DNA from: Geobacter metallireducens GS-15
Lineage (GTDB): Bacteria > Desulfobacterota > Desulfuromonadia > Geobacterales > Geobacteraceae
Reading direction: 5' to 3'
Assembly (NCBI RefSeq): GCF_000012925.1
Contig: NC_007517.1
Span: 2,370,001 to 2,402,000 of the forward strand
Length of the DNA stretch: 32,000 nt
In this document: piece after piece, positions 1,305 through 32,000 of the stretch
Position numbering within the stretch: the stretch's first letter is position 1
Layout of the letters: each line of letters begins with the position of its first letter
Notes under the pieces: model-generated
What the model was told of the DNA's origin: nothing
Databases searched by the model: none
Seen by the model: only the letters and a program-made list of their open reading frames with translations
Translations under genes and position numbers: made by a program

Positions 1305-1391
1305 TGCCGGGACCCGGTCCTGACGTCTCGGCAACGATTGCGGGATTATCCCGCCACCCCGTCAACGACAAACGGAGAAAGGAGCAAGACC

Positions 1392-1997
1392 ATGAGCCTT
1401 CCATTGGTAGTGGCAATCACCGGCGCAACAGGCGTGATCTACGGGGTGGAGATGCTGAACGTGCTGAAGGAACTGGGTCAGGAAACCCATCTCATCGTCA
1501 GCGAGGCCGCCGGCAAGAACCTAGAGATCGAGACATCATACTCCCTTGACGAGGTCCGGGCCTTGGCCGACGTCGTCTATGACAACAAGGATATCGGCGC
1601 CTCGGTGGCCAGCGGCTCGTTCCGCACCCGCGGCATGATCGTGGCTCCTTGCACCGTAAAGACGCTTTCGGCCATTGCCAACTCGTTCACCTACAACCTG
1701 GTGATACGCGCCGCCGATGTAACCCTGAAAGAACGGCGCCCCCTGGTGCTCATGGTGCGCGAAACACCTTTGCACAAGGGGCACCTGGAGCTCATGTCGC
1801 GCGCCACCGACTGCGGCGCCCAGATATTGCCGCCAATGCCGGCCTTCTACCACAAGCCGGAGTCAATCATGGACATCGTCCACCAGAGCATCGGCAAGGC
1901 TCTGGACCAGGTGGGGATCGAGCACAATCTCTTCAAGCGCTGGCACGGGGACAACCGGAAGGAGCAGGTTCGGGAGTCCCTCAGAATCGCCAATTAA
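1392..1997 (+). CDS. ubiX: Flavin prenyltransferase UbiX (prenyl-FMN synthase)
   Basis: MSLPLVVAITGATGVIYGVEML..., GMIVAPCTVKTLSAIANS and RPLVLMVRETPLHKGHLELM are typical UbiX/Pad1 blocks. ATG 1392 is preferred over the ORF-track start at 1338 because AAAGGAG (1378-1384) lies 7 nt upstream. Confidence 0.85.
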   Translation: MSLPLVVAITGATGVIYGVEMLNVLKELGQETHLIVSEAAGKNLEIETSYSLDEVRALADVVYDNKDIGASVASGSFRTRGMIVAPCTVKTLSAIANSFTYNLVIRAADVTLKERRPLVLMVRETPLHKGHLELMSRATDCGAQILPPMPAFYHKPESIMDIVHQSIGKALDQVGIEHNLFKRWHGDNRKEQVRESLRIAN

Positions 1998-2027: not shown

Positions 2028-3107
2028 ATGAACCGTGACAAGACAATACTCATCATCAATCCCGGCTCCACCTCGACCAAGATCGGCATCTTTTCGGCAG
2101 GCGAGATGAAAATCAACGTGTCGGTCAGACATGACGACGCGGAGCTGAGGAAGTTTGCCACCATCTGGGATCAGTACGATTACCGCAAGGACGCCCTCCT
2201 CGGGTTCCTGCGGGACCACGATCTCGCCATGGATGATATCGACGCCATCGCCTGCCGCGGCGGTAACGTCAGACCGCTCCCCGGTGGCATCTACCGGCTC
2301 TGTCCGCGAATGATCGCCGACATGAAGAGCGGCATCTACGGCGGCCACCCGATCAACGTGGGGGGGCTGGTGGCATATGACCTGGGGAACCAGTACGGCA
2401 TCCCGGTTCTGACCGCCGATCCTCCCATGACCGACGAACTCTGCGCCTCGGCCCGCTACTCCGGGATTCCCCAGCTCACGAGGACGAGCAGCTTCCACGC
2501 CCTGAACCAGAAGGCCACTGCCCGCAGAATCGCGGCGGAACTGGGGAAACGGTACGATGAGGTGAACCTGATCGTCGCTCACCTGGGGGGCGGCATCTCG
2601 GTGGGAGCACACCAGAAGGGGAAGATCGTCGACGTGAACAACGCCCTGGACGGGGACGGCCCCTTCTCGCCGGAACGGGCCGGGACACTGCCGGCCGGCG
2701 ACCTGGTCAAACTCTGCTTCAGCGGCGACTACACGAAGGCCGAGGTGCTGAAGCTCCTGACCGGCGGCGGAGGGCTGTACGCCTATCTGGGTACCACCAA
2801 CGTGATCGAGATTGAAAAGCGGATCACGGCGGGCGACGGGAAGGCGGCCGAGGTGTTCGAGGCGATGATCTACCAGGTGGCCAAGGAGATCGGCGCCTGC
2901 GCGGCCGTACTGGAGGGGACGGTGGACGCCATCGCCCTCACCGGGAGCCTGGTCTATTCGGAGCGACTCCTGGAGAGTCTGAAGAGGAAGATCGCTTTCA
3001 TCGCCCCGGTCCATTTGAACCCCGGCGAGAACGAGATGGAGGCCCTGGCCGATGCGGCAATGCGCTACTTCAGCCAGGAAGAAGAGCTGTCCGTGTACGC
3101 CGCCTGA
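2028..3107 (+). CDS. Butyrate-kinase-family (ASKHA) acyl kinase, copy 1
   Basis: 359 aa. ILIINPGSTSTKIG N-terminal phosphate loop, AIACRGG, LIVAHLGGGISVGAH, DGDGPFSPERAG and AIALTGSL are the conserved butyrate-kinase blocks. Close paralogue at 26057-27145. Confidence 0.85.
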   Translation: MNRDKTILIINPGSTSTKIGIFSAGEMKINVSVRHDDAELRKFATIWDQYDYRKDALLGFLRDHDLAMDDIDAIACRGGNVRPLPGGIYRLCPRMIADMKSGIYGGHPINVGGLVAYDLGNQYGIPVLTADPPMTDELCASARYSGIPQLTRTSSFHALNQKATARRIAAELGKRYDEVNLIVAHLGGGISVGAHQKGKIVDVNNALDGDGPFSPERAGTLPAGDLVKLCFSGDYTKAEVLKLLTGGGGLYAYLGTTNVIEIEKRITAGDGKAAEVFEAMIYQVAKEIGACAAVLEGTVDAIALTGSLVYSERLLESLKRKIAFIAPVHLNPGENEMEALADAAMRYFSQEEELSVYAA

Positions 3108-3161
3108 CCGGTTGCAACGGGCGGCAATCAATTACATCATTTACGAGAAAGAGGATTACTT

Positions 3162-4091
3162 ATGAAACAGTTCTCCCTCCGTCGGCTGTTGTTCCTCCCT
3201 TGCATCGCCCTTGCCGTATTTCTGTTCTCCGCCCCCCTGACGTGGGCCGGCGGAGGGCAGCACTATCCGAACGGTGTCGAAGACTTCGCCGTGGGGGCAC
3301 TCCCCCCTCCGGGTGTCTATCTCGTGAATTACCTGCTGCTCGTCCAGAAAAACAGCATCAAGGACAATTCCGGAAACAGCGTACCGGCGGATTTCAAGGC
3401 TGATGTGGTGGCCGAGGTCCCCCGACTCATCTACGTCAGTCCGTTCAAGCTATTGGGAGCCAACTGGGGCGCCCATGTCTTTCTTCCCTTCTACCACGCC
3501 GATGTGAAAAGCAGTTCCGACATCCCCCCGCTCAATTTCGATTCCCGCGACACGGGGATGGGGGATCTTATCTTCAGCCCCCTCATCCTTGGCTGGCACT
3601 TCACCCCCTCGCTCCATGCCGTCTTTGCACTGGACACCTGGGCACCCACCGGGGACTACGACAAGAACCGGCCGGCAACCCAGATCCTCTCCAGGAACCA
3701 CTGGACCTTCGAGCCGGTCGTGGCGGTCTCATACCTCAAGGAGGGTTTCGACGTCTCCGCCAAGCTCATGTACGACTTCAACACCAGAAACAGCGACACC
3801 GGCACCGACCCAGGCCAGGAGTTCCACATTGACTGGGCAGCGGGCTATGGACTCAGCAACGGGCTGAGCGGGGGCGTGGTGGGCTACAACTACTGGCAGA
3901 CCACCGACGACAAGGTCAACGGAGTCAGGGTCGAAGACGCAAACAGCAGGGTGGGAGGCATCGGCTTCGGCATCAAGTACTGGCCCAAACAGGGGCCGTT
4001 CAGCATGACCTTCAAACAGTACTGGGAGTATGGCGCCCGCAACATCGCCACCGGCCCCCAGACCCAGTTCAAGATTTCCTATGCCTTCTGA
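3162..4091 (+). CDS. Outer-membrane beta-barrel channel, MetA-pathway / phenol-degradation OMP family
   Basis: Signal peptide MKQFSLRRLLFLPCIALAVFLFSAPLTWA. Alternating amphipathic strands. C-terminal aromatic residue (KISYAF). GALPPPGVYLVNY and FEPVVAVSY blocks are shared with the paralogue at 25093-26016. RBS AAGAGGA upstream. Confidence 0.7.
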   Translation: MKQFSLRRLLFLPCIALAVFLFSAPLTWAGGGQHYPNGVEDFAVGALPPPGVYLVNYLLLVQKNSIKDNSGNSVPADFKADVVAEVPRLIYVSPFKLLGANWGAHVFLPFYHADVKSSSDIPPLNFDSRDTGMGDLIFSPLILGWHFTPSLHAVFALDTWAPTGDYDKNRPATQILSRNHWTFEPVVAVSYLKEGFDVSAKLMYDFNTRNSDTGTDPGQEFHIDWAAGYGLSNGLSGGVVGYNYWQTTDDKVNGVRVEDANSRVGGIGFGIKYWPKQGPFSMTFKQYWEYGARNIATGPQTQFKISYAF

Positions 4092-4163
4092 CCCCCCGTG
4101 TCAGGAGCGGCTCTGACGCGGCTGATCAATTTCAACGGTTCCGAACAGGGACAAGGTACGCCC

Positions 4164-4736
4164 ATGCGGGAAATGTCGAAAATTTACGAACATATCTACG
4201 ACCTGGCCAGGCCTCATCTGAATACCCGGAACAACGATATTCATACCAATGTAGCCTATCGTTTTGCCCTGCGGTTGCTCGAGGATGAGCCGGGTGATCC
4301 CGACGTGGTCATCCCGGCCATCATCTGTCATGACATCGGGTGGATAAAGCTCCCGGAAGCGTTGCACTCGAAGGCATTCGGTCCGGGATTCGATCCCGAT
4401 CTGCGCAGGGTCCACGAGGTTGAGGGGGTCGAACTGGCCCGGGAGATCCTGAGAAGCGTGGCCTATGACCCGCACAAAAGCCGCGAGATCCTGGAGATTA
4501 TCGAGGGCCACGATTCCCGTCTCGAAGCGATCTCCGACAGCGACAAGATCGTGAAGGATGCGGACAAACTGTGGCGCGTTACGTCCGAGGGGCTGGCAAT
4601 CGATGCCGAATGGTTCCGGCAGGAACCCGAGGAACACCTGCACTGGACGGCGGTGCAGATCGATTCCTGGTTTTTCACCGAAACCGGCAGGCAACTGGCC
4701 TGGGCAGCGTTGGAAAAGGCGGGATACACACCTTGA
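4164..4736 (+). CDS. HD-domain metal-dependent phosphohydrolase
   Basis: IPAIICHDIGW (H-D doublet), EGHDSR and KDADKLW motifs. ATG 4164 is chosen rather than the GTG at 4098. ATG 4173 is also possible. Confidence 0.65.
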   Translation: MREMSKIYEHIYDLARPHLNTRNNDIHTNVAYRFALRLLEDEPGDPDVVIPAIICHDIGWIKLPEALHSKAFGPGFDPDLRRVHEVEGVELAREILRSVAYDPHKSREILEIIEGHDSRLEAISDSDKIVKDADKLWRVTSEGLAIDAEWFRQEPEEHLHWTAVQIDSWFFTETGRQLAWAALEKAGYTP

Positions 4737-4763: not shown

Positions 4764-6185
4764 ATGGCCGACACAGAGCAGCATCTGGAAGAGATGCTTC
4801 GGCTGGCAAATTTCACCATAGAGCGGACCGGCACCCCCATTGTCTGGGTGGACTCCACGACCCGTTTTGCACGGGTAAACGACGCGGCATGCCGGTGTTT
4901 CGGTTACTCGCCCGATGAATTCATCCGCCTGACTGCCCAGGACATCGCCCCGGGGATCCCCACGGAATTGTGGCCGCAGCACTGGGCAGAGCTGAAGCGG
5001 ATGCAATTCCGCACCTTTTCGGATCATTTCAGAAAACGCTCCGGGGAAAAGTTCCCGGTAGAGGTCGAGGAAAACTTCATCCGGTTCGAAGGGAGGGAAT
5101 ACTCCTGCAGCTTCATCAAGGACATGACCCAGCATTTCCAGACCCAGGAAGCCCTGAGGCGGGCCTTGGACGAGGTGCAAACGCTCAAAAACCGTCTGGA
5201 AGCCGAAAACGTGTACCTGATGAACGAGATCAAACTCTCCAACAACTTCGATGAAATAGTCACCGGCAATCCCATCTTCATGAAGGCCCTGCAGCTTGTG
5301 GAACAGGTTGCCCCCACCGATGCGTCCGTACTTATCCTCGGAGAAACAGGCGTCGGCAAGGAACTCATCGCCCGCGCCATCCATAACCTGAGCAACCGCC
5401 GTGATCGCCCCCTCATCCGGCTCAATTGCGCCGCATTGCCGGCAACTCTCATGGAAAACGAACTTTTCGGCCACGAAAGGGGAGCCTTCACGGGAGCGAA
5501 CTGCCGCAAACCCGGCAGGTTCGACCTGGCTGACGGGGGGACCCTTTTTCTCGACGAGGTGGGTGATCTGCCCATGGAGTTGCAGAGCAAGCTTCTGCGT
5601 GTCTTGCAGGAAGGGGAATTCGAGCGGCTCGGCGGCGCTGAAACGATAAAGGTCGATGTACGCATCCTGGCCGCGACCCACGTGGATTTGAAAGCCCTGC
5701 TTGCCGAGGGGCGGTTTCGCAGCGACCTGTACTATCGCCTCAATGTCTTTCCGATCCAATGCCCCCCCCTCAGGGAACGCAGGGAAGACATCCCCCTGCT
5801 GGTCAGGCATTTTGTCAAAGCCTCCTGCGAAAAGAACGGAAAAAGCATCGAGCTTATTCCGCGCCATGTCATGGAGTCACTGGAGGGGTACCCCTGGCCC
5901 GGCAATATCCGGGAACTGCAGAACGTTATCGAACGGGCGGTGATCATCAGCCGGGGAAACAAGCTGGAGATCGACTCCCTCCCTAAAATGGTCATAGCCG
6001 CCGATGCAGCCCCCATCTCACCTCTGGAAGTGACCGAACGGGAACATATCATCCGTGCTCTCGAAACAACGGCATGGCGAGTCGGCGGGCCAAAGGGCGC
6101 CGCTGAAATCCTCGGACTGAAACGCACAACCCTCCAGGCGAGGATGCGCAAGCTCGGCATCAACCGGCAGGGCCTGCCAGCCTGA
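4764..6185 (+). CDS. Sigma-54-dependent transcriptional activator with N-terminal PAS sensor (PAS-AAA+-HTH)
   Basis: PAS-like N-terminus. Walker A GETGVGKE. ELFGHERGAFTGA (GAFTGA sigma-54 contact loop). [14 protein letters not shown]-terminal Fis-type HTH AAEILGLKRTTLQARMRKLGI. Confidence 0.9.
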   Translation: MADTEQHLEEMLRLANFTIERTGTPIVWVDSTTRFARVNDAACRCFGYSPDEFIRLTAQDIAPGIPTELWPQHWAELKRMQFRTFSDHFRKRSGEKFPVEVEENFIRFEGREYSCSFIKDMTQHFQTQEALRRALDEVQTLKNRLEAENVYLMNEIKLSNNFDEIVTGNPIFMKALQLVEQVAPTDASVLILGETGVGKELIARAIHNLSNRRDRPLIRLNCAALPATLMENELFGHERGAFTGANCRKPGRFDLADGGTLFLDEVGDLPMELQSKLLRVLQEGEFERLGGAETIKVDVRILAATHVDLKALLAEGRFRSDLYYRLNVFPIQCPPLRERREDIPLLVRHFVKASCEKNGKSIELIPRHVMESLEGYPWPGNIRELQNVIERAVIISRGNKLEIDSLPKMVIAADAAPISPLEVTEREHIIRALETTAWRVGGPKGAAEILGLKRTTLQARMRKLGINRQGLPA

Positions 6186-6437: not shown

Positions 6438-6500
6438 AAACATTGTTTTGAATAAACGATTCCACAAATGCAAATCCCCATCACAGGAGAGGAGGCTCAC

Positions 6501-7868
6501 ATGTTAACCAGGACAGATGGCAAGGGCAGTAAGGTACTATTAATCGCGGCCATGGACACCAAGGGAACAGAAGCCCGTTACATCGAATCGTGGCTGGCGA
6601 AGGCGGGTTTCACCACGTTGATCATGGATATGGGTATCCGTGGAAAAAGGCCCGGTCCGGTCGCAGTCACCCGGGATGAAGTGCTGCGCGCTGCCGGGAA
6701 GACCTGGGATGACATACAAAATGTCACCAGCGAGGGGGACGCCGTGGACATCATGATCTCCGGCGGCGTCAAGTGTGCGCTTGCCCTGTACAAAGCTGAT
6801 CTAATTCAGGGGGTCATCAGTCTTGGGGGAACAATGGGCACCACCCTGGGCACGGGAGTGATGCGGGCTTTCCCCATTGGTTTCCCTAAGGTAATGATCT
6901 CTACCATCGCTGCCAAGGATACCGAGGCATTTATTGGGAACATGGATATTTTCATGCTGAATTCGGTGTCTGATCTGGCAGGACTGAACCGGATCACCCG
7001 TAAAGTGTTGCGAAACGGGGCGCTGGCAATTGCCGGCCTGGTCAGGGAACGGGAGTTCCATGACGAATTTTCACGCCCGCTGGCCGTCCTGACGACTCTG
7101 GGCACAACGGAGGCCACGGCGGCACGGATGAGAATCCACTTTGAGGCGTGGGGATACGAAAGTGTGACGTTCCATACCACGGGAACCGGCGGCCAGGCAA
7201 TGGAGCGGATGGTCAACTTCGAACCGGTCTCCGCAGTGGTGGACCTGTCCCTTCATGAACTGATAGACCACCATTTCGGAGGAGCGTTCGATCCCGGTCC
7301 GGAGCGTGGCAGAGCTGCCCTGCAAAAGGGGATACCGACGGTGATCGTTCCGGGCAATATCGATTTTCTGGTAACCGGTCCCATGGCCCAGGCCCAGATT
7401 TATTTTCCCGGCAGACGGGGGCACAAACATAACGCCAACATCACCTGCGTCCGGACAAGTCTGGAGGAAATCCAACGGATAGCAGAAATCATGGCCGGTT
7501 ACTGCAATGAAAGCACGGGGCCCGTTGCCGTCCTCGTGCCCATGAAGGGGTTCTCATGCCTGGATCATGAGGATGGCCCCCAACCGGACCCGGAGGGGCC
7601 TCGCGTTTTCGCCGAAACCTTCGCCAGGGCATTAACGCGCACCATCCATTTTGAAACGGTCCCGCTGCACATAAACGACGAAGCGTTTTCCGAAGTAATT
7701 GTCGGGGCACTGCAAAAAATCGGCGGACTGCGGAAAATCGAGGCTGATCGGCTACCATCCCGACAACCTGCGACATGGAGCCCTTACAGCTCAGTGCACA
7801 CCCTCGACCGCTTCTCCGGTAATCAGCACACCACTACGGAAACAACAGGAGATGCGCTTGCGGCATGA
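6501..7868 (+). CDS. UPF0261 / Tm-1-like ATP-binding family protein (full length, with about 50 aa C-terminal tail)
   Basis: KVLLIAAMDTKGTE, ISLGGTMGTTLGTGVMRAFPIGFPKVMIST and FMLNSVSDLAGLNRITRKVLRNGALAIAG match the conserved UPF0261 blocks as I remember them. ATG 6501 is preferred over 6468 because GGAGAGGAGG (6486-6495) precedes it. Confidence 0.75.
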   Translation: MLTRTDGKGSKVLLIAAMDTKGTEARYIESWLAKAGFTTLIMDMGIRGKRPGPVAVTRDEVLRAAGKTWDDIQNVTSEGDAVDIMISGGVKCALALYKADLIQGVISLGGTMGTTLGTGVMRAFPIGFPKVMISTIAAKDTEAFIGNMDIFMLNSVSDLAGLNRITRKVLRNGALAIAGLVREREFHDEFSRPLAVLTTLGTTEATAARMRIHFEAWGYESVTFHTTGTGGQAMERMVNFEPVSAVVDLSLHELIDHHFGGAFDPGPERGRAALQKGIPTVIVPGNIDFLVTGPMAQAQIYFPGRRGHKHNANITCVRTSLEEIQRIAEIMAGYCNESTGPVAVLVPMKGFSCLDHEDGPQPDPEGPRVFAETFARALTRTIHFETVPLHINDEAFSEVIVGALQKIGGLRKIEADRLPSRQPATWSPYSSVHTLDRFSGNQHTTTETTGDALAA

Positions 7869-21445: not shown

Positions 21446-21861
21446 TGGAAACGGGAAGAAGAGGGTTTTTCAAGCAGATTTTCACGGCCGTGGCCGCAGT
21501 AGCCGCAACAGGGGCCACAGCAGCCGCCCCCCGCAGGGCCGAGGCCTCCGTGGCGGGACAGATCAAAGGGGTGTGCCTCTACGTCCCGAGCCTTGGCAAA
21601 GCGACTGATTTTGTCGAGATGATGAACAAGAACGCCCCCGGATCCTGGACGGTTCACCCCCTCACCGGATCCCTGAGCGAGCATTACTTCACCACCAGGA
21701 ACCTCTACGAGGAGGCCCGTGGAAGCGCCAACACCTTTGTGGGGGTCGTGGATCCGGCAACCTTTGCCATCGTTCACGAAGCGATCGTCGATTGCGGCGG
21801 CAGCTTCCACTACACCACCTACGAAGACCGGAACCGGGTCACGTTTTCCGCACAGCTGTAA
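21442..21861 (+). CDS. Small protein with twin-arginine signal, unknown function (occupies the position of pchX between the cytochrome and flavoprotein genes)
   Basis: MMETGRRGFFKQIFTAVAAVAATGATAAAPRRAEA is a good Tat signal (RRxFFK, h-region, AxA-like site). ATG 21442 overlaps the upstream TGA (ATGATG). The longer listed ORF from 21025 is a frame overlap with the cytochrome gene. Confidence 0.6.
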   Translation: MMETGRRGFFKQIFTAVAAVAATGATAAAPRRAEASVAGQIKGVCLYVPSLGKATDFVEMMNKNAPGSWTVHPLTGSLSEHYFTTRNLYEEARGSANTFVGVVDPATFAIVHEAIVDCGGSFHYTTYEDRNRVTFSAQL

Positions 21862-21877
21862 CCGAGGAGGTTTGAAA

Positions 21878-23473: not shown

Positions 23474-23499
23474 CCGACAACCGTTGAGGAGGTAAGAAC

Positions 23500-25062
23500 A
23501 TGAGTCGTTACCTAGCGCTGCCAAAGGGCGTTACCGAAGCAGCCTTTACCAAAGCGATCACTGAGTATCGCACCCTTCTGGGAGAGGGGCGCGTCCGCAC
23601 CGATCTGGCATCCCTCAGTCCGTACATCGTCAACTCCATTGCCGAAAGCGATTCATTGCACACTCCCTCGGCAGCCATCTACCCGACGACCACCAGGGAA
23701 ATCCAGTCCATTGTCGGCATTGCCAACAAGTACAAGACGCCGCTCTGGACTGTCTGCAACGGGGAAAACGAGGGGTACGGCTCCTCGGCGCCGGCAACCG
23801 CCGGGCAGATAGTGCTCGATCTGCGAAACATGAAGAAGATCATCGAGGTCGATCGGGAGCTGGGCTACTGTCTGGTGGAGCCCGGCGTGACCTATGCCGA
23901 CCTCCAGAACTACCTCACCAGCAACAAGATCAACCTCTGGCTCGATGCTCCGGCACCTTCGGCCAATGTCAGCATCCTCGGCAATATCCTGGAGCGGGGG
24001 AGCGGCTACACCCCCTACAGCGAGGATTTCCTCTTTTCCTGCGGCATGGAGGTGGTGCTGGCCAACGGGACTGTCCTCAAGACCGGCATGGGGGGCATCC
24101 CCAATTCCACCAGCTGGCAGGTCTTCAAGTGGGGGTTCGGCCCCTATGTGGACGGGCTCTTTTCCCAGGGGAACAACGGGATCGTCACCAAGGTCGGCGC
24201 ATGGCTGATGGGAGCACCGCCTCCGGGTGGCTACAAGCCTTTCTGCATCAGGTTCCCCAAGAACGAGATGCTGCCCAACATCATCAAGCCGCTCATGTTC
24301 CTGCGCCAGGCCCAGATCGTTCCCAACGCCTGCGCCCTGGTCAACGCCGGATGGGAAACGGCCACCCGTTTCGCCAATGACCGGAGGAACAACGGCCGTT
24401 TCATCAACACGGCGAACCGGGTCATTCCCGCCAACAAACTGGTCAACCGCAACGTTGGTGCCTGGAATCTCTACGGGGCCGTCTACGGCTCTCCCGAGCA
24501 GGTGGCCCTGAACTGGATGTACGTCTCCGGCACCTTCAAACAGGCCTTCGGTAACAAGATCAGCATCATCACCGAGAATGAGGCCAAGGGGGACCCGGCC
24601 TTCGAGTATCGCAAGCAGCTCATGATGGGGGGGGTCACCAGCCGCAATCCCCTGGACAGCTGGCGCCCCGGCTACGGCTCCATGAAGTTCGCCCCCACGG
24701 CGGCGGCACGGCCGGGCGAATGCGCCCAGCAGGCGAAGGTGGCGGCAGAGATCATCAACCGGCACGGTTTCGACTACCTCAGCGAGTTCAGCTTCTTCTG
24801 GTACGACGCCCGCCACACCGTCGATCTCCGTTTTGACCGCACCAGGCCCGAGGAGATGAAACGGGCCCATGCCTGCTTCAACGAGCTCATCAGCGCCTTC
24901 GCCAAACATGGCTGGGCGGTGGGCCGCACCAACACCGCCTTCATGGACAAGGTGGCCGATTCCTACGGCCCGGCAAAGCAGAGGCTCAACCGCACCATCA
25001 AGAAGGCCCTGGACCCCAACAACATCCTGTCGCCGGGCAAATCAGGGATCACGGCAGGGTAA
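23500..25062 (+). CDS. pcmJ: Second PCMH flavoprotein-type subunit (alpha-prime), divergent at cofactor and substrate residues
   Basis: 520 aa, colinear with 21878-23473 from the first residues (MSRYLALPKGVTEAAF vs MSRFIALPKGVTEAAF). Reads PLDSWRPGYGSMKFAPT and AVGRTN at the two key sites. The symbol is from memory. Confidence 0.85.
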   Translation: MSRYLALPKGVTEAAFTKAITEYRTLLGEGRVRTDLASLSPYIVNSIAESDSLHTPSAAIYPTTTREIQSIVGIANKYKTPLWTVCNGENEGYGSSAPATAGQIVLDLRNMKKIIEVDRELGYCLVEPGVTYADLQNYLTSNKINLWLDAPAPSANVSILGNILERGSGYTPYSEDFLFSCGMEVVLANGTVLKTGMGGIPNSTSWQVFKWGFGPYVDGLFSQGNNGIVTKVGAWLMGAPPPGGYKPFCIRFPKNEMLPNIIKPLMFLRQAQIVPNACALVNAGWETATRFANDRRNNGRFINTANRVIPANKLVNRNVGAWNLYGAVYGSPEQVALNWMYVSGTFKQAFGNKISIITENEAKGDPAFEYRKQLMMGGVTSRNPLDSWRPGYGSMKFAPTAAARPGECAQQAKVAAEIINRHGFDYLSEFSFFWYDARHTVDLRFDRTRPEEMKRAHACFNELISAFAKHGWAVGRTNTAFMDKVADSYGPAKQRLNRTIKKALDPNNILSPGKSGITAG

Positions 25063-25092
25063 CGTTCAATGAGCATTTGGAGGAAACAATCC

Positions 25093-26016
25093 ATGAATCT
25101 ATCAAAATCCCTGATACTGAGCATCTGCCTCACGACCATCGTCTTCATCCACTCGGGAGCCTGGGCCTTCAATTCCAGTTCCTTCAACGGCACGGCCGAC
25201 TTTTACGCCGGAGCCGCTCCGCCGCCGGGACTCCATCTCATCGACTACAACGTCTTCATGGATATCAAGAAGATAGAAAACAAGGGACAGGGACTGGTGG
25301 ACGGCAAAGGGACCCTGACCGCCATAGCCTTCCGCCCCATCTATGTCTCGGAAAAGGGGCTCTTCGGCGGCAACTTCCTCATGCACTCCATCATTCCCCT
25401 CCTGTCGGTGGAGGCCGACGTGAAGGCAAACACGCCCGGCGGGCAGATCACCGTGCAAGGCCATGACGGAGGGCTTGGCGATGTCTATTTCGGGGTGGGG
25501 ATGGCGTGGCACACCCCGGTCTGGCACTGGCTGACGGTACTGGACGTCATCACCCCCACCGGCAGCTTCGATCCGAACAAACCCGTCAATGCCGGCAACA
25601 ACGCCTTCATCATCGAACCGGTTGTGGCCGTTACCGGCATGTTCCCGAACGGCATGGAGGTGAATGCCAAGTTCATGTACTCCTACCACACCAAGAACAG
25701 CGACTATGTGGAAGCCGGAACGGGTATCAAGGGGTATCAGACGGGACAGGCGTTCCACATGGACTACAACGTGAACTATGCCGTGACCAAGGATCTGAAG
25801 CTCGGTGTTACCGGCTGGCTCTGGCAGGGACTGGAGAACGACCGGATCGGCGGGCAGAAACGTGCCGACACCAAGGACTTCGAATTCTCCATGGGGCCGG
25901 CAGCCCGATACCAGAACGGCAAGTTTGCCGTCATCGGCAAGTATGTGCTGCCGGTGGCCGCCGAGAACCGTATCGAAGCCAACCAGCTCTGGATCGATCT
26001 GGTCTATTCATTCTAG
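25093..26016 (+). CDS. Outer-membrane beta-barrel channel, MetA-pathway / phenol-degradation OMP family, copy 2
   Basis: Signal peptide MNLSKSLILSICLTTIVFIHSGAWA. GAAPPPGLHLIDY, IIEPVVAVTG, C-terminal LVYSF. GGAGG (25079-25083) lies 9 nt before ATG 25093, which is preferred over ATG 25069. Confidence 0.7.
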   Translation: MNLSKSLILSICLTTIVFIHSGAWAFNSSSFNGTADFYAGAAPPPGLHLIDYNVFMDIKKIENKGQGLVDGKGTLTAIAFRPIYVSEKGLFGGNFLMHSIIPLLSVEADVKANTPGGQITVQGHDGGLGDVYFGVGMAWHTPVWHWLTVLDVITPTGSFDPNKPVNAGNNAFIIEPVVAVTGMFPNGMEVNAKFMYSYHTKNSDYVEAGTGIKGYQTGQAFHMDYNVNYAVTKDLKLGVTGWLWQGLENDRIGGQKRADTKDFEFSMGPAARYQNGKFAVIGKYVLPVAAENRIEANQLWIDLVYSF

Positions 26017-26056: not shown

Positions 26057-27145
26057 ATGGACGACAAGAAAATACTGATAATCAATCCAGGCTCCACCTC
26101 GACGAAAATCGGTGTCTTTACCGAAGGGAAGATGATCGTCAATCAATCGGTGAAGCATGACGACGAGGAACTGAGGAAGTTCCCCACCATCTGGGACCAG
26201 TATGATTTCCGCCGGGATGCAATCTTCAAGGTGCTCGCGGACAACAACCTCTCCATGGGGGAAATTGACGCCATCGCCTGCCGGGGCGGCAACGTCAGGC
26301 CCCTTCCCGGCGGCATCTACCGGGTCTGCCCGAAGATGATCGAGGACATGAAGAGCGGCATCTATGGCGGCCATCCCATCAATGTGGGGGGGCTGGTGGC
26401 CTTCGACCTGGGGAACCAGTTCAATATCCCGGTCCTCACCGCCGATCCCCCCATGACCGACGAACTCTGCGCCTCGGCCCGGTACAGCGGCATTCCCCAG
26501 ATCACCAGACAGAGCAGTTTCCACGCCCTCAACCAGAAGGCCACTGCCAGGAAGATCGCCGCGGAACTGGGAAAGAAATACGACGAAATCAACCTGATCG
26601 TCGCCCACCTGGGTGGCGGAATTTCGGTGGGCGCCCACCGCAGAGGAAAGATCATCGATGTGAATAACGCCCTTGACGGCGACGGCCCCTTCTCCCCGGA
26701 GAGGGCCGGCTCCCTTCCGGCGGGCGACCTGGTGAAGCTCTGCTTCAGCGGCGAGTACACCAAAAAAGAGGTTCTCAAGCTACTGACCGGAAAGGGAGGA
26801 CTGTTCGCCTATATGGGAACGACCGACGCCGTCGAAATCGAGAAGAGAATCGCCCATGGTGGGCAGAAGGCGGCGGAGGTCTATGAAGCGATGATCTACC
26901 AGGTGGCCAAGGAGATCGGTGCCAGCGCGGCGGTCCTTGAGGGAGATGTTGACGCCATCGCCCTCACCGGCAGCCTGGCCTACTCGAAAAAGCTCGTGGA
27001 AAGCCTGAGCAGGAAGATTTCCTTCATCGCCCCGGTGCTCCTCAATCCGGGCGAAAACGAAATGGAAGCCCTGGCCGACGCGGCCATGAGGTATTTCAAC
27101 AATGAAGAGGCCCTCTCCGTCTACCACCAGGACAAGGCGGCATGA
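26057..27145 (+). CDS. Butyrate-kinase-family (ASKHA) acyl kinase, copy 2
   Basis: MDDKKILIINPGSTSTKIGVF... Same conserved blocks as 2028-3107. Roughly four residues in five look identical by eye. ATG 26057 with GGAGGG upstream. The listed ORF start at 25805 overlaps the porin gene. Confidence 0.85.
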   Translation: MDDKKILIINPGSTSTKIGVFTEGKMIVNQSVKHDDEELRKFPTIWDQYDFRRDAIFKVLADNNLSMGEIDAIACRGGNVRPLPGGIYRVCPKMIEDMKSGIYGGHPINVGGLVAFDLGNQFNIPVLTADPPMTDELCASARYSGIPQITRQSSFHALNQKATARKIAAELGKKYDEINLIVAHLGGGISVGAHRRGKIIDVNNALDGDGPFSPERAGSLPAGDLVKLCFSGEYTKKEVLKLLTGKGGLFAYMGTTDAVEIEKRIAHGGQKAAEVYEAMIYQVAKEIGASAAVLEGDVDAIALTGSLAYSKKLVESLSRKISFIAPVLLNPGENEMEALADAAMRYFNNEEALSVYHQDKAA

Positions 27146-27202: not shown

Positions 27203-27970
27203 ATGGGAAAACTTACGGGAAAAGTAGCGATCATCACCGGCGGTGCACAGGGAATCGGCGCGGCCTATGCTGTAGGTCTGGCAAAGGAAGGAGCGAAGAT
27301 CGTCATTGCCGACGTACTGGACGGCGCCAAGGCGGTTGAGGCGGTGAAAGCAGCGGGAAGCGACGCCATCTACGTCAAAACCGACGTGAGCAGCCAGGAG
27401 CAGTGCGACGCCATGGCCCAGGCCGCTGCCGAGAAGTTCGGCTCCGTGGACATCCTCCTCAACAATGCGGCCATCTTCGGCAGCATCGTCCTGAAGCCGT
27501 TCACCGAATGCACCCCCCAGGAGTTCATGAAGGTGATGGAAATCAACGTCCTTGGCCAGTTCAACTGCATGAAGGCGGTATTCCCCCACATGAAGGCCAG
27601 GGGGGGGAAGATCATCAACATCAGCTCCTCCTCCATCATTGAAGGAGTCCCCGGCATGCCCCACTATGTGGCTTCCAAAGGTGCAATCATGGCCCTCACC
27701 CGCTCCATGGCCCGTGAACTGGGTGACTACAAGATCAACGTCAACACCATCGCCCCCGGCTTCACCCATTCCGATGGGGGTAACAGCTTCGACAAGAACA
27801 AGAAGCTGGATCTGCCGCCGCTGGAAGAGCTGCAGATCAATGCCCGCTGTCTGAAAAGGGAAGCGGTGCCCGAGGATCTCATCGGCCTGGCCCTGTTCCT
27901 CTCCTCCGATGACAGCGCCTTCATCACCGGCCAGATGATCGTCCACGACGGCGGATTGTCGTTCCACTAA
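27203..27970 (+). CDS. Classical short-chain dehydrogenase/reductase (candidate 4-hydroxybenzyl-alcohol dehydrogenase)
   Basis: TGGAQGIG (TGxxxGxG), NNAAIFG, S...YVASKGA (YxxxK). The substrate is inferred from context only. Confidence 0.85.
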   Translation: MGKLTGKVAIITGGAQGIGAAYAVGLAKEGAKIVIADVLDGAKAVEAVKAAGSDAIYVKTDVSSQEQCDAMAQAAAEKFGSVDILLNNAAIFGSIVLKPFTECTPQEFMKVMEINVLGQFNCMKAVFPHMKARGGKIINISSSSIIEGVPGMPHYVASKGAIMALTRSMARELGDYKINVNTIAPGFTHSDGGNSFDKNKKLDLPPLEELQINARCLKREAVPEDLIGLALFLSSDDSAFITGQMIVHDGGLSFH

Positions 27971-27985
27971 GGGATGGAGGGTGCC

Positions 27986-28384
27986 ATGAAAGAAGTCCTC
28001 GATATGCTTCCCGCCCCCTGTTACGGCAGCCTGGCAACGGTGGCCGGCGGCAAACCCCGGGTCAGGCCCTTTGCCTTCATGTATGAAGAAAACGGTCGAT
28101 TCTATTTCTGCACGGCCAGCAACAAAGAGGTTTACCGGCAACTGACCGAGACGCCGTTCATCGAATTCACCAGGACCGATGAACAGATGCGCTGGCTGAG
28201 AATCGGCGGCGAGATCACATTCGACGAGGATATCAAGAGCAGGGAGAAATGCTTCGCCAACTATCCCATGCTCAAAGATATCTATCAGACGCCTGACAAC
28301 CCGCTCTTCAAGGTGTTTTACCTGGAGCACGGCGCGGCATCCGTTAACAGTCTGACCGAACCGCCCAAGAACTTTGAATTCTGA
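27986..28384 (+). CDS. Pyridoxamine-5'-phosphate-oxidase-like (FMN-binding split-barrel) small protein
   Basis: About 132 aa. GSLATVAGGKPRVRPFAFMYEENGRFYFCTASNKEVYRQL is typical of this fold family. GGAGG (27976-27980) lies 5 nt before ATG 27986. Confidence 0.6.
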   Translation: MKEVLDMLPAPCYGSLATVAGGKPRVRPFAFMYEENGRFYFCTASNKEVYRQLTETPFIEFTRTDEQMRWLRIGGEITFDEDIKSREKCFANYPMLKDIYQTPDNPLFKVFYLEHGAASVNSLTEPPKNFEF

Positions 28385-28402
28385 CCCCAGAAAGGGATAA
28401 CC

Positions 28403-29845
28403 ATGAAAGAATACAGACTTTTCATCAACGGAGAATGGGTGCCCTCCTCCACGGGCACCATGGCCGACGACATCAATCCGGCCACCGGCGACGTGTATGC
28501 CAAGGTGCACCAGGCGAGCCGTGATGATATCGAACAAGCCATCGCCTCCGCCTATCGCGCCCGGGTAGATTGGGGGAAAACGGTGCCGGCCCAGCGGGAG
28601 GCGATCCTGATCAAGGCCGCCGCCATTCTCGAAGAGCGGATTCCCGAGTTCGCAGAGGTGCTCATCGAGGAAGGTGGCGCCACCTTCGGCAAGGCGATGT
28701 TCGAGTCCTCTTTTGTCGTCACCCTGCTCCGGAGCGCGGCCGGTGAGTGCCGGCGCATCTTCGGCGAGACGATCCCCTCCGACGCCCCGGGCCTCTTTTC
28801 CATGAGCGTCCGCAGGCCCCTGGGAGTCATCGCGGGGATCTCCCCCTTCAACTTCCCGTTCCTGCTGGCCATGAAAAAAGTCGCACTGGCCCTGGCCGCC
28901 GGCAACACCTTCGTCCTCAAGCCTGCCTCGCCGACGCCGGTCATCGGCCTGAAGATCGCCGAACTGTTCGAGGCGGCCGGTCTTCCTAAGGGGGTCCTCA
29001 ACGTCATCCCCGTCAAGGGGAGCACCCTGGGAAATACCCTGGTGGAGGACCCGAGGATCCGGATGGTGACCTTCACCGGTTCCACGGACGTGGGAAAACA
29101 GCTGGCCGAGGTCGCGGGGCGCCACCAGAAGAAGATCACCCTGGAAATGGGCGGGAAAAGCCCCCTCATCGTGCTCAAGGATGCGGATATCGACTATGCG
29201 GTTGACGCCGCCGTGTTCGGCATCTTCCTCCACCAGGGACAGGTCTGCATGGCCAACTCACGGCTCATCGTCGAAGCAGACATCTACGACCGGTTCTGCG
29301 AGAAACTGACGGCAAAAGTCAAAGGGCTCAAGATGGGCGACCCCCACAAGCCCGACACGGTCATCGGCCCCCTCATCGACGCCAAGCAGTGCGCCTTCAT
29401 CGACTCCCAGGTACACGACGCCCTGGCCGACGGGGCGCGGGTTCTCTCGGGAGGAAGGTCGGAAGGTGCGTTCTATCAGCCCACCATCGTGGCCGACGTG
29501 ACCAGGAAGATGCGCATCTTCGACGAGGAGAGTTTCGGCCCGGTCGTCTGCGTCATCAAGGCCGCCAACAGCGAAGAGGCCCTGGCCCTGGCCAACGACT
29601 CCTCCTTCGGCCTCTCCGCCGGCCTGATCACCAACGACCTGCAGAAGGCCTTCGATCTGTCGCTGCGGCTTGAGTCCGGCATGGTCCACATCAATGACAG
29701 CAGCATCTTCGACGAGCCCCATGTCCCCTTCGGCGGCGTGAAAGACAGCGGCGTCGGACGCGAAGGCGGCCACTATTCCATGGAGGAGATGACCGAGGTG
29801 AAGTGGATTACCGTGCAGATGGGCAAACGGCAATTCCCCTTCTAG
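28403..29845 (+). CDS. pcmO: NAD(P)+-dependent aldehyde dehydrogenase (4-hydroxybenzaldehyde dehydrogenase by context)
   Basis: 480 aa. FTGSTDVGKQL, LEMGGKSP (catalytic Glu), QGQVCMANSR (catalytic Cys), EESFGPV. The symbol is from memory. Confidence 0.85.
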   Translation: MKEYRLFINGEWVPSSTGTMADDINPATGDVYAKVHQASRDDIEQAIASAYRARVDWGKTVPAQREAILIKAAAILEERIPEFAEVLIEEGGATFGKAMFESSFVVTLLRSAAGECRRIFGETIPSDAPGLFSMSVRRPLGVIAGISPFNFPFLLAMKKVALALAAGNTFVLKPASPTPVIGLKIAELFEAAGLPKGVLNVIPVKGSTLGNTLVEDPRIRMVTFTGSTDVGKQLAEVAGRHQKKITLEMGGKSPLIVLKDADIDYAVDAAVFGIFLHQGQVCMANSRLIVEADIYDRFCEKLTAKVKGLKMGDPHKPDTVIGPLIDAKQCAFIDSQVHDALADGARVLSGGRSEGAFYQPTIVADVTRKMRIFDEESFGPVVCVIKAANSEEALALANDSSFGLSAGLITNDLQKAFDLSLRLESGMVHINDSSIFDEPHVPFGGVKDSGVGREGGHYSMEEMTEVKWITVQMGKRQFPF

Positions 29846-30158: not shown

Positions 30159-30187
30159 TTGACATGACCTCCCCTTGCGGTTATCTT
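30159..30187 (+). promoter_or_regulatory. Sigma-70-type promoter candidate for the MarR gene (TTGACA-17 nt-TATCTT)
   Basis: TTGACA at 30159-30164, a 17-nt spacer, then TATCTT at 30182-30187. The -10 lies inside the 21-bp repeat at 30176-30196. Confidence 0.45.
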
Positions 30188-30196
30188 GTATGCAAG
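30176..30196 (+). promoter_or_regulatory. 21-bp repeat copy A, TGCGGTTATCTTGTATGCAAG (candidate MarR operator)
   Basis: Matches the reverse complement of 30649-30669 at 20 of 21 positions. The core TTGTATGCAA is itself an 8/10 palindrome. Confidence 0.55.
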
Positions 30197-30209
30197 AGGA
30201 TTTATTGAG

Positions 30210-30623
30210 ATGATTTCATATCGGGACCACATAGTATTCTTGATCGCCAAGGCCCATCAACGGGCCCAGGGAGCCCTTAAGGGACACCTTCTCCCCTTTG
30301 GTCTCACCCCCATGCAGTGCCTTTTTCTGGAGGCCCTCATGGAGGAGGATGGGCTTTCGGTGGGAGAGATCGGCCGGCGCATAGCCCTGGATACCGCCAC
30401 CCTTGCGGGAATTCTCGACCGCATGGTCACGGCCGGCTGGGTCAGGCGCGAGACCGACTCCCAGGACGCCCGGGTGGCGCGGGTCTATCTGACGGAGAAG
30501 GCAGCGGCGGCCATTCCGGAGCTGTCAGCAAGCATTGAACGAACAAACGATGAGCTCATGCGGAACTTTTCCCTTGAGGAAAAACTTCTGATGAAACGGT
30601 TCCTTCGGGATTTCCGGGAATAA
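30210..30623 (+). CDS. MarR-family transcriptional regulator
   Basis: LTPMQCLFLEALMEEDGLSVGEIGRRIALDTATLAGILDRMVTAGWVRRETDSQDARVARVYLTEKA is a winged-HTH of MarR type. ATG 30210 with AGAGGA upstream is preferred over the TTG at 30186. Confidence 0.85.
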   Translation: MISYRDHIVFLIAKAHQRAQGALKGHLLPFGLTPMQCLFLEALMEEDGLSVGEIGRRIALDTATLAGILDRMVTAGWVRRETDSQDARVARVYLTEKAAAAIPELSASIERTNDELMRNFSLEEKLLMKRFLRDFRE

Positions 30624-30648
30624 GAATGATTTTCTTTTAACCTAACAC

Positions 30649-30669
30649 CTTGCATACAAGATATCCGCA
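30649..30669 (-). promoter_or_regulatory. 21-bp repeat copy B (minus-strand reading TGCGGATATCTTGTATGCAAG)
   Basis: The plus strand reads CTTGCATACAAGATATCCGCA. Lies 38 nt upstream of ATG 30707 of the Mo-hydroxylase operon. Confidence 0.55.
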
Positions 30670-30706
30670 TAGGGCAAGGACCATCATCAATGTGAGGAGA
30701 TACACC

Positions 30707-31576
30707 ATGTACATGCCCGATTTTGAGTACCATACTCCGGAGACTCTGACCGAGGCCTGCGCGCTCCTGGACGAACTGGGAGAACAGGCCACGGTCCTGG
30801 CCGGGGGAACCGATGTCCTCCACAAGATGAAGGTGGGTAAACTGGCGCCGGGGCATCTGGTATCGCTCAAAAACCTGGACGACCTTCGCACCATCAGCCA
30901 CGAGCCGGGGCGCGGCATCGTCATGGGAGCCCTGACCAGCCACAATGCCATCTACACCTCGCGTCTGCTCCAGAAACGCTACCTGTCCCTCCCCATGGCG
31001 GCCCACACCATGGCCTCCAACCAGATCTGCAACATGGGAACCGTGGGCGGTAACATCGTCAACGGCGTCCCTTCCGCCGACCTCCCTCCGATCCTCATTG
31101 CCCTCAACGCCTCGATACGGCTGGTTTCCAGCAAAGGGGAGCGAACCATGCCCCTGGAAGACTTCTTCCATGGCTCGGCCGAGACGGTGATCGCTCCGGG
31201 CGAGTTGCTGGCCGACATCACCATCCCGGACCAGCCGACCACCGGGAGCACCTACATGAAATTCGGCCTGCGCCGCTCCGGTGCTCTAGCGGTTGTTGGG
31301 GTAGCGGTGTCGGTTACGGTGAAAGGTGACATCCTGGAAGACGTCCGGATCGTTCTCGCTTCGGCGGCGCCAACGGTAATGCGCGCTCGGAAGGCAGAGG
31401 ACCGGCTGAGGGGGAAAAAGATCAGCGACGAATTGCTGGCCGAAGCCGGGGAGGAGGCAGCGGCGGAAAGCCGTCCCCGGGACAGCATCCGGGGTTCCGC
31501 CGAATATCGCCGGAACTTGGTCGGAGTGCTCACCAAACGGGCGCTGCGCAAAGCAATCGACGAAGGCCACTCGTAA
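30707..31576 (+). CDS. FAD-binding (medium, CoxM/HcrB-like) subunit of a molybdenum hydroxylase; 4-hydroxybenzoyl-CoA reductase-like by context
   Basis: 289 aa. FEYHTPETLTEACALLDELGEQATVLAGGTDVL and NMGTVGGNIVNGVPSADLPP are the FAD-binding blocks of xanthine-oxidase-family medium subunits. RBS GAGGAG 7 nt upstream. Confidence 0.8.
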   Translation: MYMPDFEYHTPETLTEACALLDELGEQATVLAGGTDVLHKMKVGKLAPGHLVSLKNLDDLRTISHEPGRGIVMGALTSHNAIYTSRLLQKRYLSLPMAAHTMASNQICNMGTVGGNIVNGVPSADLPPILIALNASIRLVSSKGERTMPLEDFFHGSAETVIAPGELLADITIPDQPTTGSTYMKFGLRRSGALAVVGVAVSVTVKGDILEDVRIVLASAAPTVMRARKAEDRLRGKKISDELLAEAGEEAAAESRPRDSIRGSAEYRRNLVGVLTKRALRKAIDEGHS

Positions 31577-31588
31577 GGAGGTAAATAT

Positions 31589-32000
31589 ATGTTGCAGTCA
31601 ATAACCGACAAAGACGGAGTGAAGCGTTACCTGATCACCCTGAAGGTGAATGGGGATGCGAAGACCGTGCTGGTAAAGGGAAACGCCATCCTGACCAATG
31701 TGCTGCGCGACCACCTGGACCTGACCGGCACCAAGAAGGGGTGCGAGCTGGGGGACTGCGGTTCGTGCACCGTTCTGCTGGACGGCAAACCGGTGGATTC
31801 GTGCCTGATGCTGGCCGTTGAGGCAGACGGCCGGGAGATCACCACCATCGAAGGGGTTGCCGCCAACGGGGCACTGGACGCCATTCAGGAGTCCATGATC
31901 AACCACGCCGCCGTGCAGTGCGGCTACTGCACCCCTGGCATGGTCCTCTCCGCCAAGGCACTTCTGACCCGCAACCCGCATCCCACGGAACCGGAGGTTC
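31589..32000 (+). CDS. [2Fe-2S] (small, CoxS/HcrC-like) subunit of the molybdenum hydroxylase, 3' end outside the window
   Basis: My own translation from ATG 31589 (AAGGAGG 7 nt upstream): MLQSITDKDGVKRYLITLKVNGDAKTV...GCELGDCGSCTVLLDGKPVDSC...QCGYCTPGMV. Both 2Fe-2S Cys motifs are present. The frame stays open to base 32000. Confidence 0.85.
   Translation, partial: MLQSITDKDGVKRYLITLKVNGDAKTVLVKGNAILTNVLRDHLDLTGTKKGCELGDCGSCTVLLDGKPVDSCLMLAVEADGREITTIEGVAANGALDAIQESMINHAAVQCGYCTPGMVLSAKALLTRNPHPTEPEV

Follow-up and report, generated by a model that had tools for sequence, protein, structure and literature searches.

The stretch of the Geobacter metallireducens GS-15 genome analysed here (NC_007517.1, positions 2,370,001 to 2,402,000; 32,000 nucleotides, hereafter the window) contains two acyl kinases of the butyrate kinase family (Buk), each next to an outer-membrane channel gene, one pair in a phenol operon and the other in a p-cresol operon. 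The two kinase-channel neighbourhoods are independent juxtapositions and not a duplicated two-gene module: in Geobacterales, phenol and p-cresol operons have repeatedly taken up two accessory gene types. The recurrent neighbour of the kinase is a phosphotransacylase, Ptb, and not the channel. From sequence and genomic context we propose, with confidence that is evenly balanced, that kinase and Ptb together turn 4-hydroxybenzoate into its CoA ester with formation of ADP, and that the channels take up phenol or p-cresol.

An earlier interpretation of this DNA, made from its letters without database searches (the sequence-only reading), had proposed four open reading frames (ORFs) in the order kinase-channel and channel-kinase, and all four were found on the + strand where it had placed them. 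BukA (Gmet_2106, 2028..3107) and PorA (Gmet_2107, 3162..4091) lie in the phenol (pps/ppc) operon, and PorB (Gmet_2127, 25069..26016, annotated start 25093) and BukB (Gmet_2128, 26057..27145) in the p-cresol (pcm) operon. Window coordinates plus 2,370,000 give the genome coordinates of the published gene table (Butler 2007 Additional file 1, PMC1924859), which lists Gmet_2106 and Gmet_2128 as butyrate kinases at 2372028-2373107 and 2396057-2397145, and Gmet_2107 at 2373162-2374091. For PorB, either of two ATG codons separated by 24 bp could serve as the start (25069 and 25093); the downstream one is the annotated start and gives the more typical signal peptide.

BukA and BukB scored 462.2 and 486.2 bits against the butyrate-kinase equivalog model TIGR02707, well over its curated cut-off of 289.1 bits, and 62-71 bits against the acetokinase family PF00871 (cut-off 22). 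BukA is ~50% identical to Thermotoga Buk2 (PDB 1SAZ/1X9J; E 2.5e-100), and the N-termini of both kinases lack a signal peptide. PorA and PorB scored 223.5 and 170.3 bits against PF13557 (Phenol_MetA_deg; gathering cut-off 22), which corresponds to COG4313. Both begin with a putative export leader, a hydrophobic N-terminus ending in an Ala-x-Ala-type motif (TWA and AWA, read directly from the translations), and both end in Phe, a signature of outer-membrane barrels. Searched by sequence against the PDB, PorA gave no match at E up to 1. When PorA was modelled with AlphaFold from 33 sequences (pLDDT 84.7) and the model used in a fold search, the best PDB match was 4RL8 (E 1.2e-14, TM 0.75/0.86, rmsd 2.8 over 277 columns). 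Both proteins are COG4313 outer-membrane channels, PorA of a phenol-operon clade and PorB of a p-cresol-operon clade. Profile searches of the whole genome (4,011,182 bp, two contigs) found exactly two genes above the butyrate-kinase cut-off, BukA and BukB, and two strong PF13557 matches, PorA and PorB, along with two weak ones. Since the only two Buk genes of the genome both adjoin its only two strong channels, at a distance of 40-54 bp in both pairs, the double adjacency is not a chance arrangement.

To place the kinases, a maximum likelihood tree was built from 83 sequences, including 42 canonical butyrate kinases. The Desulfuromonadales-type kinases formed one clade (SH-aLRT 96) whose basal members are ptb-linked, and nested within it was a clade of 32 aromatic-cluster kinases (support 99). 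An approximately unbiased (AU) test rejected BukA and BukB as sisters (delta lnL 97.6, p-AU 2.6e-5). BukB grouped with pcm-linked kinases of its own genus and family (94% identity to that of G. hydrogenophilus), and BukA with a kinase of locus L099 (89%), the phenol-linked kinase of G. argillaceus and phenol-linked kinases from metagenome-assembled genomes (MAGs). In the channel tree, PorA and PorB fell into separate clades of 10 and 12 sequences (support 100 each). Eight of the ten sequences in the PorA clade are from phenol operons, and all 12 in the PorB clade are from pcm operons, where they lie between the second p-cresol methylhydroxylase (PCMH) alpha-type gene and the kinase. Other COG4313 clades of Geobacteraceae join the PorA and PorB clades at the same unresolved node. 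Together with a gene order that varies between genomes, the two trees exclude duplication of a kinase-channel unit.

The kinases are identical at 291 of 354 residues (82%) in a gap-free alignment, and three peptide runs that had been quoted as nearly identical occur in both. The channels, which had been described as alike only at family level, indeed share PF13557 and 31% identity over 314 columns (E 1e-41). Nei-Gojobori estimates were dS 0.90, dN 0.118 and dN/dS 0.13 for the kinase pair, and dS 1.3 (saturated) and dN 0.77 for the channel pair. Codon analysis of the kinase pair revealed no tract of raised synonymous identity. Given the dS of 0.90, the dN/dS of 0.13 and the lack of such a tract, the similarity of the kinases is best explained by long-term purifying selection and not by recent conversion; the AU result against sisterhood also speaks against a recent duplication or gene conversion, which we had considered and rejected. 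The path length was ~0.37 substitutions/site between BukA and BukB and ~2.25 between PorA and PorB, a ratio of ~6. Between orthologues of this genome and of a complete genome that we take to be G. daltonii, the channel/kinase rate ratio was only ~2.3, suggesting that the channel split either predates the kinase split or was accelerated after it. The proposal that the kinase is under tighter constraint than the channel is therefore right in part: the channel does evolve ~2.3 times faster between orthologues, but the rest of the 82%/31% gap would come from the older or accelerated channel split.

We then surveyed 87 Geobacteraceae genomes, in which the kinases fell into three tiers with 77-94%, 65-69% and 46-48% identity to BukA/BukB. 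The 46-48% tier is a housekeeping type, present in 22 of the 24 genomes of one genus. A PorB orthologue (76-98% identity) lies directly upstream of a BukB orthologue (79-94%) in 11 other genomes of the family, as seen in short loci, and the order PCMH alpha-1, PCMH alpha-2, PorB, Buk, SDR was kept wherever longer flanks were fetched, including G. hydrogenophilus, Geotalea toluenoxydans, Geotalea sp. SG265 and G. daltonii. Phenol operons of other genomes carry PorA orthologues of 60-80% identity in several arrangements. The G. argillaceus operon has the order UbiX-Buk-PorA-HD, as in G. metallireducens; this result of a wider scan overturned the idea that kinase-then-channel order in phenol operons is unique to G. 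metallireducens. The order UbiX-PorA-Buk was found in several MAGs of Desulfuromonadales and metagenome contigs; PorA-Buk was seen in the phenol operons of loci L093, L094, L104, L160 and L162, and UbiX-PorA-Buk-Ptb in L104 and L108. The G. daltonii phenol operon has UbiX-PorA-HD without a kinase and with 112 bp from UbiX to PorA, in agreement with the gene table, which gives no FRC-32 orthologue of Gmet_2106 (PMC1924859). The PorA-HD pairing is kept in both G. daltonii and G. argillaceus. Some pcm operons contain the kinase without the channel, either as PCMH-Buk-SDR (L091/L139) or as PCMH, Fe-type alcohol dehydrogenase, Buk, SDR (L098/L137), and the Buk-SDR adjacency is conserved in relatives.

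For a quantitative view we collected 47 distinct kinases that share at least 72% identity with BukA or BukB (close kinases). A COG4313 gene was found within 700 bp on the same strand for 20 of these 47, confirming that the pairing extends beyond this genome; the neighbour was PorB upstream in 14 cases, PorA upstream in 4 and PorA downstream in 2. By comparison, the porin tag appeared on the context labels of 0/42 canonical kinases in the tree set. Genes of 4-hydroxybenzoyl-CoA reductase (HBCR) were present within 7.5 kb of 16/47 close kinases. The kinase clade occurs in 25 of 301 sampled Desulfuromonadia genomes, across eight families. A few loci in these sets have unusual features. In a Geobacteraceae MAG, a 363-aa ORF without a Pfam match fills the slot between UbiX and PorA that BukA occupies in G. 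metallireducens (L081:4447-5538, - strand). In a Geotalea toluenoxydans-like genome, PorA-type channel genes are interrupted by several stop codons or broken into fragments (G053:C25:17276-18175 and G053:C15:80083-80974); these may be pseudogenes or assembly errors. At L108:8001-9120 and L157:5217-6273, from MAG or metagenome sequence, the kinase match extends over two frames, indicating a frameshift or sequencing error.

Ptb is linked to the kinase more persistently than the channel is. In relatives, Ptb adjoins the kinase at L092, L104, L140 and L153-155, and the order Buk-Ptb-MarR-HBCR was observed at L092, L108, L140, L154 and L164; at L079, L083, L139 and L150, Ptb-MarR-HBCR follows (PCMH-(PorB)-)Buk-SDR after a few kb. 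In the basal 65-69% tier the kinase overlaps the ptb gene. Apparent in-frame TGA codons in Ptb-linked kinases proved to be only the normal stops of these genes, read through at the C-terminal end in the region of overlap with ptb. Beside the phenol regulator, G. daltonii has a basal Buk-Ptb pair, whose Ptb shares 91% identity with that of G. metallireducens (Gmet_2098). The latter is the single copy in its genome (2361250-2362230, minus strand); it lies ~9.8 kb upstream of BukA, outside the window, adjoins neither window kinase and directly follows a XylR-type regulator gene divergent from ppsA. Across the 87 genomes, a Ptb with at least 53% identity to Gmet_2098 was present in 13 of the 15 with the kinase clade and in none without it; the two clade-bearing genomes lacking such a Ptb are 83% and 61% complete. 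An HBCR beta orthologue was found in 14 genomes of the family, and 14/14 have the kinase clade. Four genomes of genus g8 carry a 47%-identical housekeeping Buk with its own Ptb in addition to the aromatic-cluster Buk and Ptb, which argues for separate roles of the two sets. We infer that the kinases form a Desulfuromonadia-specific clade of the butyrate kinase family whose functional partner is the co-inherited Ptb. The suggestion that the kinase acts on a common downstream intermediate gains support here from synteny and phylogenetic profile, since the clade is tied to Ptb, MarR and HBCR downstream of both pathways, and further from the sequence signature described below.

The surroundings of Ptb differ between the two species. 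In G. daltonii, an overlapping kinase (66% identical to BukB) and a sigma-54/PAS regulator precede Ptb, beside the phenol regulator. The Ptb gene of G. metallireducens is solitary, directly after this regulator, with a DDE transposase gene ~3 kb past it (loci L069:11247-12230 and L069:6911-8080, both - strand, compared with L072:7668-9648). This suggests that a local rearrangement removed the Ptb-linked kinase in G. metallireducens. On a single contig from an uncultured deltaproteobacterium, two Buk-Ptb pairs of the basal clade stand back to back in convergent orientation (L107:5486-7458, + strand, and L107:8477-10457, - strand).

The 32 clade members were compared with the 42 canonical butyrate kinases. 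The catalytic residues R77, H107, H157 and R217, equated by motif with Arg91, His123, His180 and Arg241 of AckA (listed in PMC3475010), are invariant in 32/32 clade members. Canonical L80, E/D/Q106, A108, L111, M/I/L155 and G307 are replaced clade-wide by N80, G/A106, P108, V111, S155 and S307. At the motif level, VVG-RGG-L becomes IAC-RGG-N (L80N), G-E-H-A-S-N-L becomes G-G/A-H-P-I-N-V, S-[M/I/L]-F-H becomes S-S-F-H, and LTGG becomes LTGS. Position 106 precedes the invariant His and is equivalent to Leu122 of acetate kinase; the acyl-binding positions of acetokinases are Leu122, Val93, the residue before the catalytic His, Pro234 and Arg243 (PMC3475010). Conserved canonical residues around the acyl pocket, as placed by motif in this sequence comparison, are not kept in the clade, and the clade-specific residues appear to lie at or next to predicted acyl-pocket positions.

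In the mechanism that we propose, the kinase would convert 4-hydroxybenzoate and ATP to 4-hydroxybenzoyl phosphate and ADP, and Ptb (Gmet_2098) would convert 4-hydroxybenzoyl phosphate and CoA to 4-hydroxybenzoyl-CoA and Pi, the CoA ester then feeding HBCR. Free 4-hydroxybenzoate would be supplied by phenylphosphate carboxylation in the phenol operon and via PCMH, SDR and aldehyde dehydrogenase in the pcm operon. This shared substrate would account for two kinases that stay similar while their channels differ. Activation by kinase and Ptb is proposed because a Pfam survey of the window genes found no AMP-forming ligase gene in either operon, although the reductase needs a CoA ester. Elsewhere in the genome, the benzoate-CoA-ligase family has one member over cut-off, 8.7 kb beyond the window; in the gene table the gene of this family is Gmet_2143/bamY, and Butler et al. 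could not predict a 4-hydroxybenzoate ligase (PMC1924859). The route would cost one ATP equivalent, compared with two for an AMP-forming CoA ligase; by our own estimate the overall kinase-Ptb reaction is approximately at equilibrium and would be pulled forward by the reductase. PorA would admit phenol and PorB p-cresol, and PCMH, the first enzyme of the p-cresol pathway, is described as periplasmic. The same logic underlies acetate activation by AckA-Pta, an ADP-forming, low-cost alternative to AMP-forming acetyl-CoA synthetase in which a kinase and a phosphotransacylase turn a free acid into its CoA ester for one ATP; the substrate proposed in Geobacter differs in being an aromatic acid. Somewhat more tentatively, we suggest that Geobacterales may replace the AMP-forming 4-hydroxybenzoate-CoA ligase by a dedicated aromatic-acid kinase and phosphotransacylase derived from Buk and Ptb.

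The Geobacter kinases and Ptb belong to the same families as clostridial/Thermotoga Buk-Ptb (TIGR02707; PDB 1SAZ, 7VG9), with ~50% identity of kinase to solved Buk2 and of Ptb to C. acetobutylicum PTB; the catalytic Arg and His are kept, and basal clade members retain the buk-ptb operon. Unlike those enzymes, the Desulfuromonadia clade has L80N, E106G/A, A108P, M/I155S and G307S, lies beside HBCR genes in anaerobic phenol/p-cresol operons and not in fermentation operons, and coexists in some genomes with a housekeeping Buk and Ptb. The paper on the C. acetobutylicum enzyme (CaPTB; PMC9706017) gives no acyl-pocket residues with which Ptb could be compared. The proposed kinase-Ptb route would serve the same pathway step as the AMP-forming 4-hydroxybenzoate-CoA ligase of Thauera, Rhodopseudomonas and Desulfatiglans, with enzymes of an unrelated family and at a different energy cost. 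In the phenol cluster of Desulfatiglans anilini the ligase gene occurs together with the reductase (PMC6114531), whereas it is absent from the Geobacter operons. Searchable literature contained nothing relevant on an aromatic acid kinase or a benzoyl phosphate route, and no report of an acetokinase-family enzyme for aromatic acid activation. As the sequence-only reading had supposed, the literature searched assigns the kinase no step in phenol or p-cresol degradation and infers a part in butyrate growth (PMC2700814); the role proposed for kinase and Ptb is absent from it, the genes being annotated and the island well studied. The proposal is supported by Ptb transcripts, which were 4.3-fold up on benzoate versus acetate (Butler 2007 Additional file 2, PMC1924859).

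Several points weigh against a role in 4-hydroxybenzoate activation. The substrate specificity of the kinase is deduced from sequence and context, the pocket placement of the clade residues is predicted from alignment, and both kinases pass the NCBI butyrate-kinase equivalog model by a wide margin. Twelve of the 47 close kinases are in contexts without recognisable aromatic genes, next to AMP-ligase, EamA, DctP, ABC binding protein and CoA-transferase-GNAT genes; the nearest relative of BukA (L099, 89%) is in a non-aromatic context, and the phenol operon of G. daltonii does without a kinase. The genes for kinase, Ptb and HBCR share a genomic island, so their co-occurrence, though it fits a common function, may reflect linkage, and the genomes, being related, are not independent. 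The ligase that activates 4-hydroxybenzoate may also be BamY or a different one. Finally, G. metallireducens grows on butyrate, and its kinases and Ptb have been assigned to this growth (PMC2700814).

The last point leads to the alternative that BukA and BukB are ordinary butyrate kinases merely residing in an aromatics island, their adjacency to channels having no meaning for the aromatic pathways. We regard this as unlikely, although it draws on scores of 462-486 bits on the equivalog model, on 42-50% identity to clostridial enzymes, on the attribution of butyrate growth to the kinases and Ptb (PMC2700814; repeated in PMC7324539), on their being the only Buk genes of a butyrate-utilising organism, and on the generic carboxylate uptake/activation genes beside 12 of the 47 relatives. 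A published study also implies that the Gmet_2128 protein was detected in earlier retentostat proteomes, and reports the pcm proteins Gmet_2117-2127 as undetected in either experiment (PMC7324539), which hints that BukB is transcribed independently of the upstream pcm genes. On the other hand, the kinase genes are embedded in phenol and pcm operons with gaps of 30-57 bp and no terminator/promoter matches, their position is conserved across at least 12 genomes, and the aromatic-cluster copies are retained even in genomes that have a housekeeping Buk and Ptb of their own. Kinase presence moreover tracks HBCR in 14/14 genomes, and the clade has fixed changes at conserved acetokinase motif positions.

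Three further readings are rated lower than butyrate use. Ptb and kinase could run in reverse as a CoA-releasing, ATP-conserving overflow valve, turning pathway acyl-CoA (excess 4-hydroxybenzoyl-CoA, benzoyl-CoA or a short acyl-CoA) into free acid and ATP. The Buk and Ptb reactions are reversible (PMC2700814) and usually run towards ATP in fermenters (PMC9706017), and linkage to Ptb and CoA-ester enzymes fits either direction; this is nevertheless improbable, as acid excretion would be wasteful for an organism that respires with Fe(III) and oxidises the ring completely, the operons make free 4-hydroxybenzoate that needs activation and contain no ligase gene, and the kinase lies just before the acid-making dehydrogenases and the CoA-ester-using HBCR. 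A supply of prenyl phosphate for the prenyl-FMN of the UbiD-type carboxylase, by the kinase next to UbiX together with the HD phosphohydrolase, would fit the position of BukA 30 bp after UbiX, the HD hydrolase gene after PorA and the same UbiX-Buk-PorA-HD order in G. argillaceus. It is very improbable, because most clade members, BukB included, are in pcm/Ptb/HBCR contexts without UbiD or UbiX, G. daltonii keeps UbiX-PorA-HD without a kinase (112 bp UbiX-PorA), and the catalytic residues are those of carboxylate kinases. Slightly less credible still is a functional dyad in which uptake by the channel is coupled to phosphorylation by the kinase to trap the phenolic substrate. Adjacency occurs twice in this genome and at 20/47 related loci, but the channel carries a signal peptide and folds as an outer-membrane barrel, whereas the kinase lacks a signal peptide, so that periplasm and inner membrane would separate them; gene order varies and each gene occurs without the other, phenol already has a phosphorylating enzyme in its operon (PpsAB), and acetokinase-family enzymes act on carboxylates.

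If 4-hydroxybenzoate activation by kinase and Ptb is correct, anaerobic degradation of phenol and p-cresol would save one ATP equivalent for every aromatic ring. Carboxylating phenol and activating hydroxybenzoate together take up to four ATP equivalents, and the ATP cost of the activation in strict anaerobes is a stated open problem (PMC6114531); the route would be part of the answer to how these organisms afford both steps. The kinases would be the first acetokinase-family enzymes with an aromatic acid as physiological substrate, adding an aromatic substrate class to the family, and Geobacter pathway maps and metabolic models, which now assign the genes to butyrate use, would change.

The COG4313 members TcpY (trichlorophenol), SphA (sphingosine) and Pput2725 have been implicated in hydrophobic/phenolic uptake, and TcpY is encoded within a phenolic-compound catabolic operon (PMC4493636), as are PorA and PorB. 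PorA shares its HMM family and predicted fold (TM 0.86) with Pput2725, a 12-stranded barrel (PDB 4RL8). The Geobacter channels differ from other COG4313 systems in that a single anaerobe has two deeply divergent paralogues, each tied to its own phenolic operon. The sequence-only reading had suggested that the channels may have diverged for different phenolics. The operon-specific PorA (phenol) and PorB (p-cresol) lineages are consistent with channels specialised for uptake of these compounds, but this fidelity to operon type would fit co-inheritance with the operon equally well. PorA and PorB form a natural pair for selectivity studies in COG4313, few members of which are characterised.

The phenol operon includes ppsA, ppsB and a UbiD-type gene upstream of the window. 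Within the window it continues with a UPF0261 gene (1-849), a CBS protein gene (864-1304) and a UbiX-type flavoprotein gene (1338..1997, + strand; PF02441, 137 bits) directly upstream of BukA, with a gap of 30 bp and no terminator match between them. BukA and PorA are followed by an HD-domain phosphohydrolase gene (4098..4736, + strand; PF01966), 6 bp after PorA, and by a sigma-54/PAS activator gene (4764-6185). In the p-cresol operon, genes for an FeS flavoprotein, cytochrome b, a Rieske protein and cytochrome c lie ahead of two PCMH alpha-type flavoprotein genes (21719-25062), the second of which (23500..25062, + strand; PF01565, PF02913) is directly upstream of PorB. BukB is followed by SDR, PNPOx-like and aldehyde dehydrogenase genes (27203..29845, + strand; Pfam), predicted to act in 4-hydroxybenzoate formation, and by MarR and HBCR beta and gamma genes (30186..31999, + strand; Pfam), gamma running past the window end. 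Intergenic gaps around BukA, PorA, PorB and BukB are 6-57 bp, and pattern scans for sigma-70, sigma-54 and terminator signals found no internal + strand signal in either operon around the four genes. A second UPF0261 (Tm-1-like) gene is present in the phenol region at 6468-7868; Butler's table gives no G. daltonii orthologue for this gene, for the sigma-54/PAS activator that precedes it or for BukA.

Outside phenol and pcm operons, the BukA relative at L099:1241-6219 has genes for an EamA transporter, an IclR regulator and a glutamate-mutase-E-like protein as its neighbours. Fusions of an acetyl-CoA hydrolase/transferase with a C-terminal GNAT domain (L102:4121-5977, - strand, and L074:13212-15071, + strand) occur near other aromatic-clade kinases in such locations, where an AMP-ligase or ABC binding protein gene is also present.

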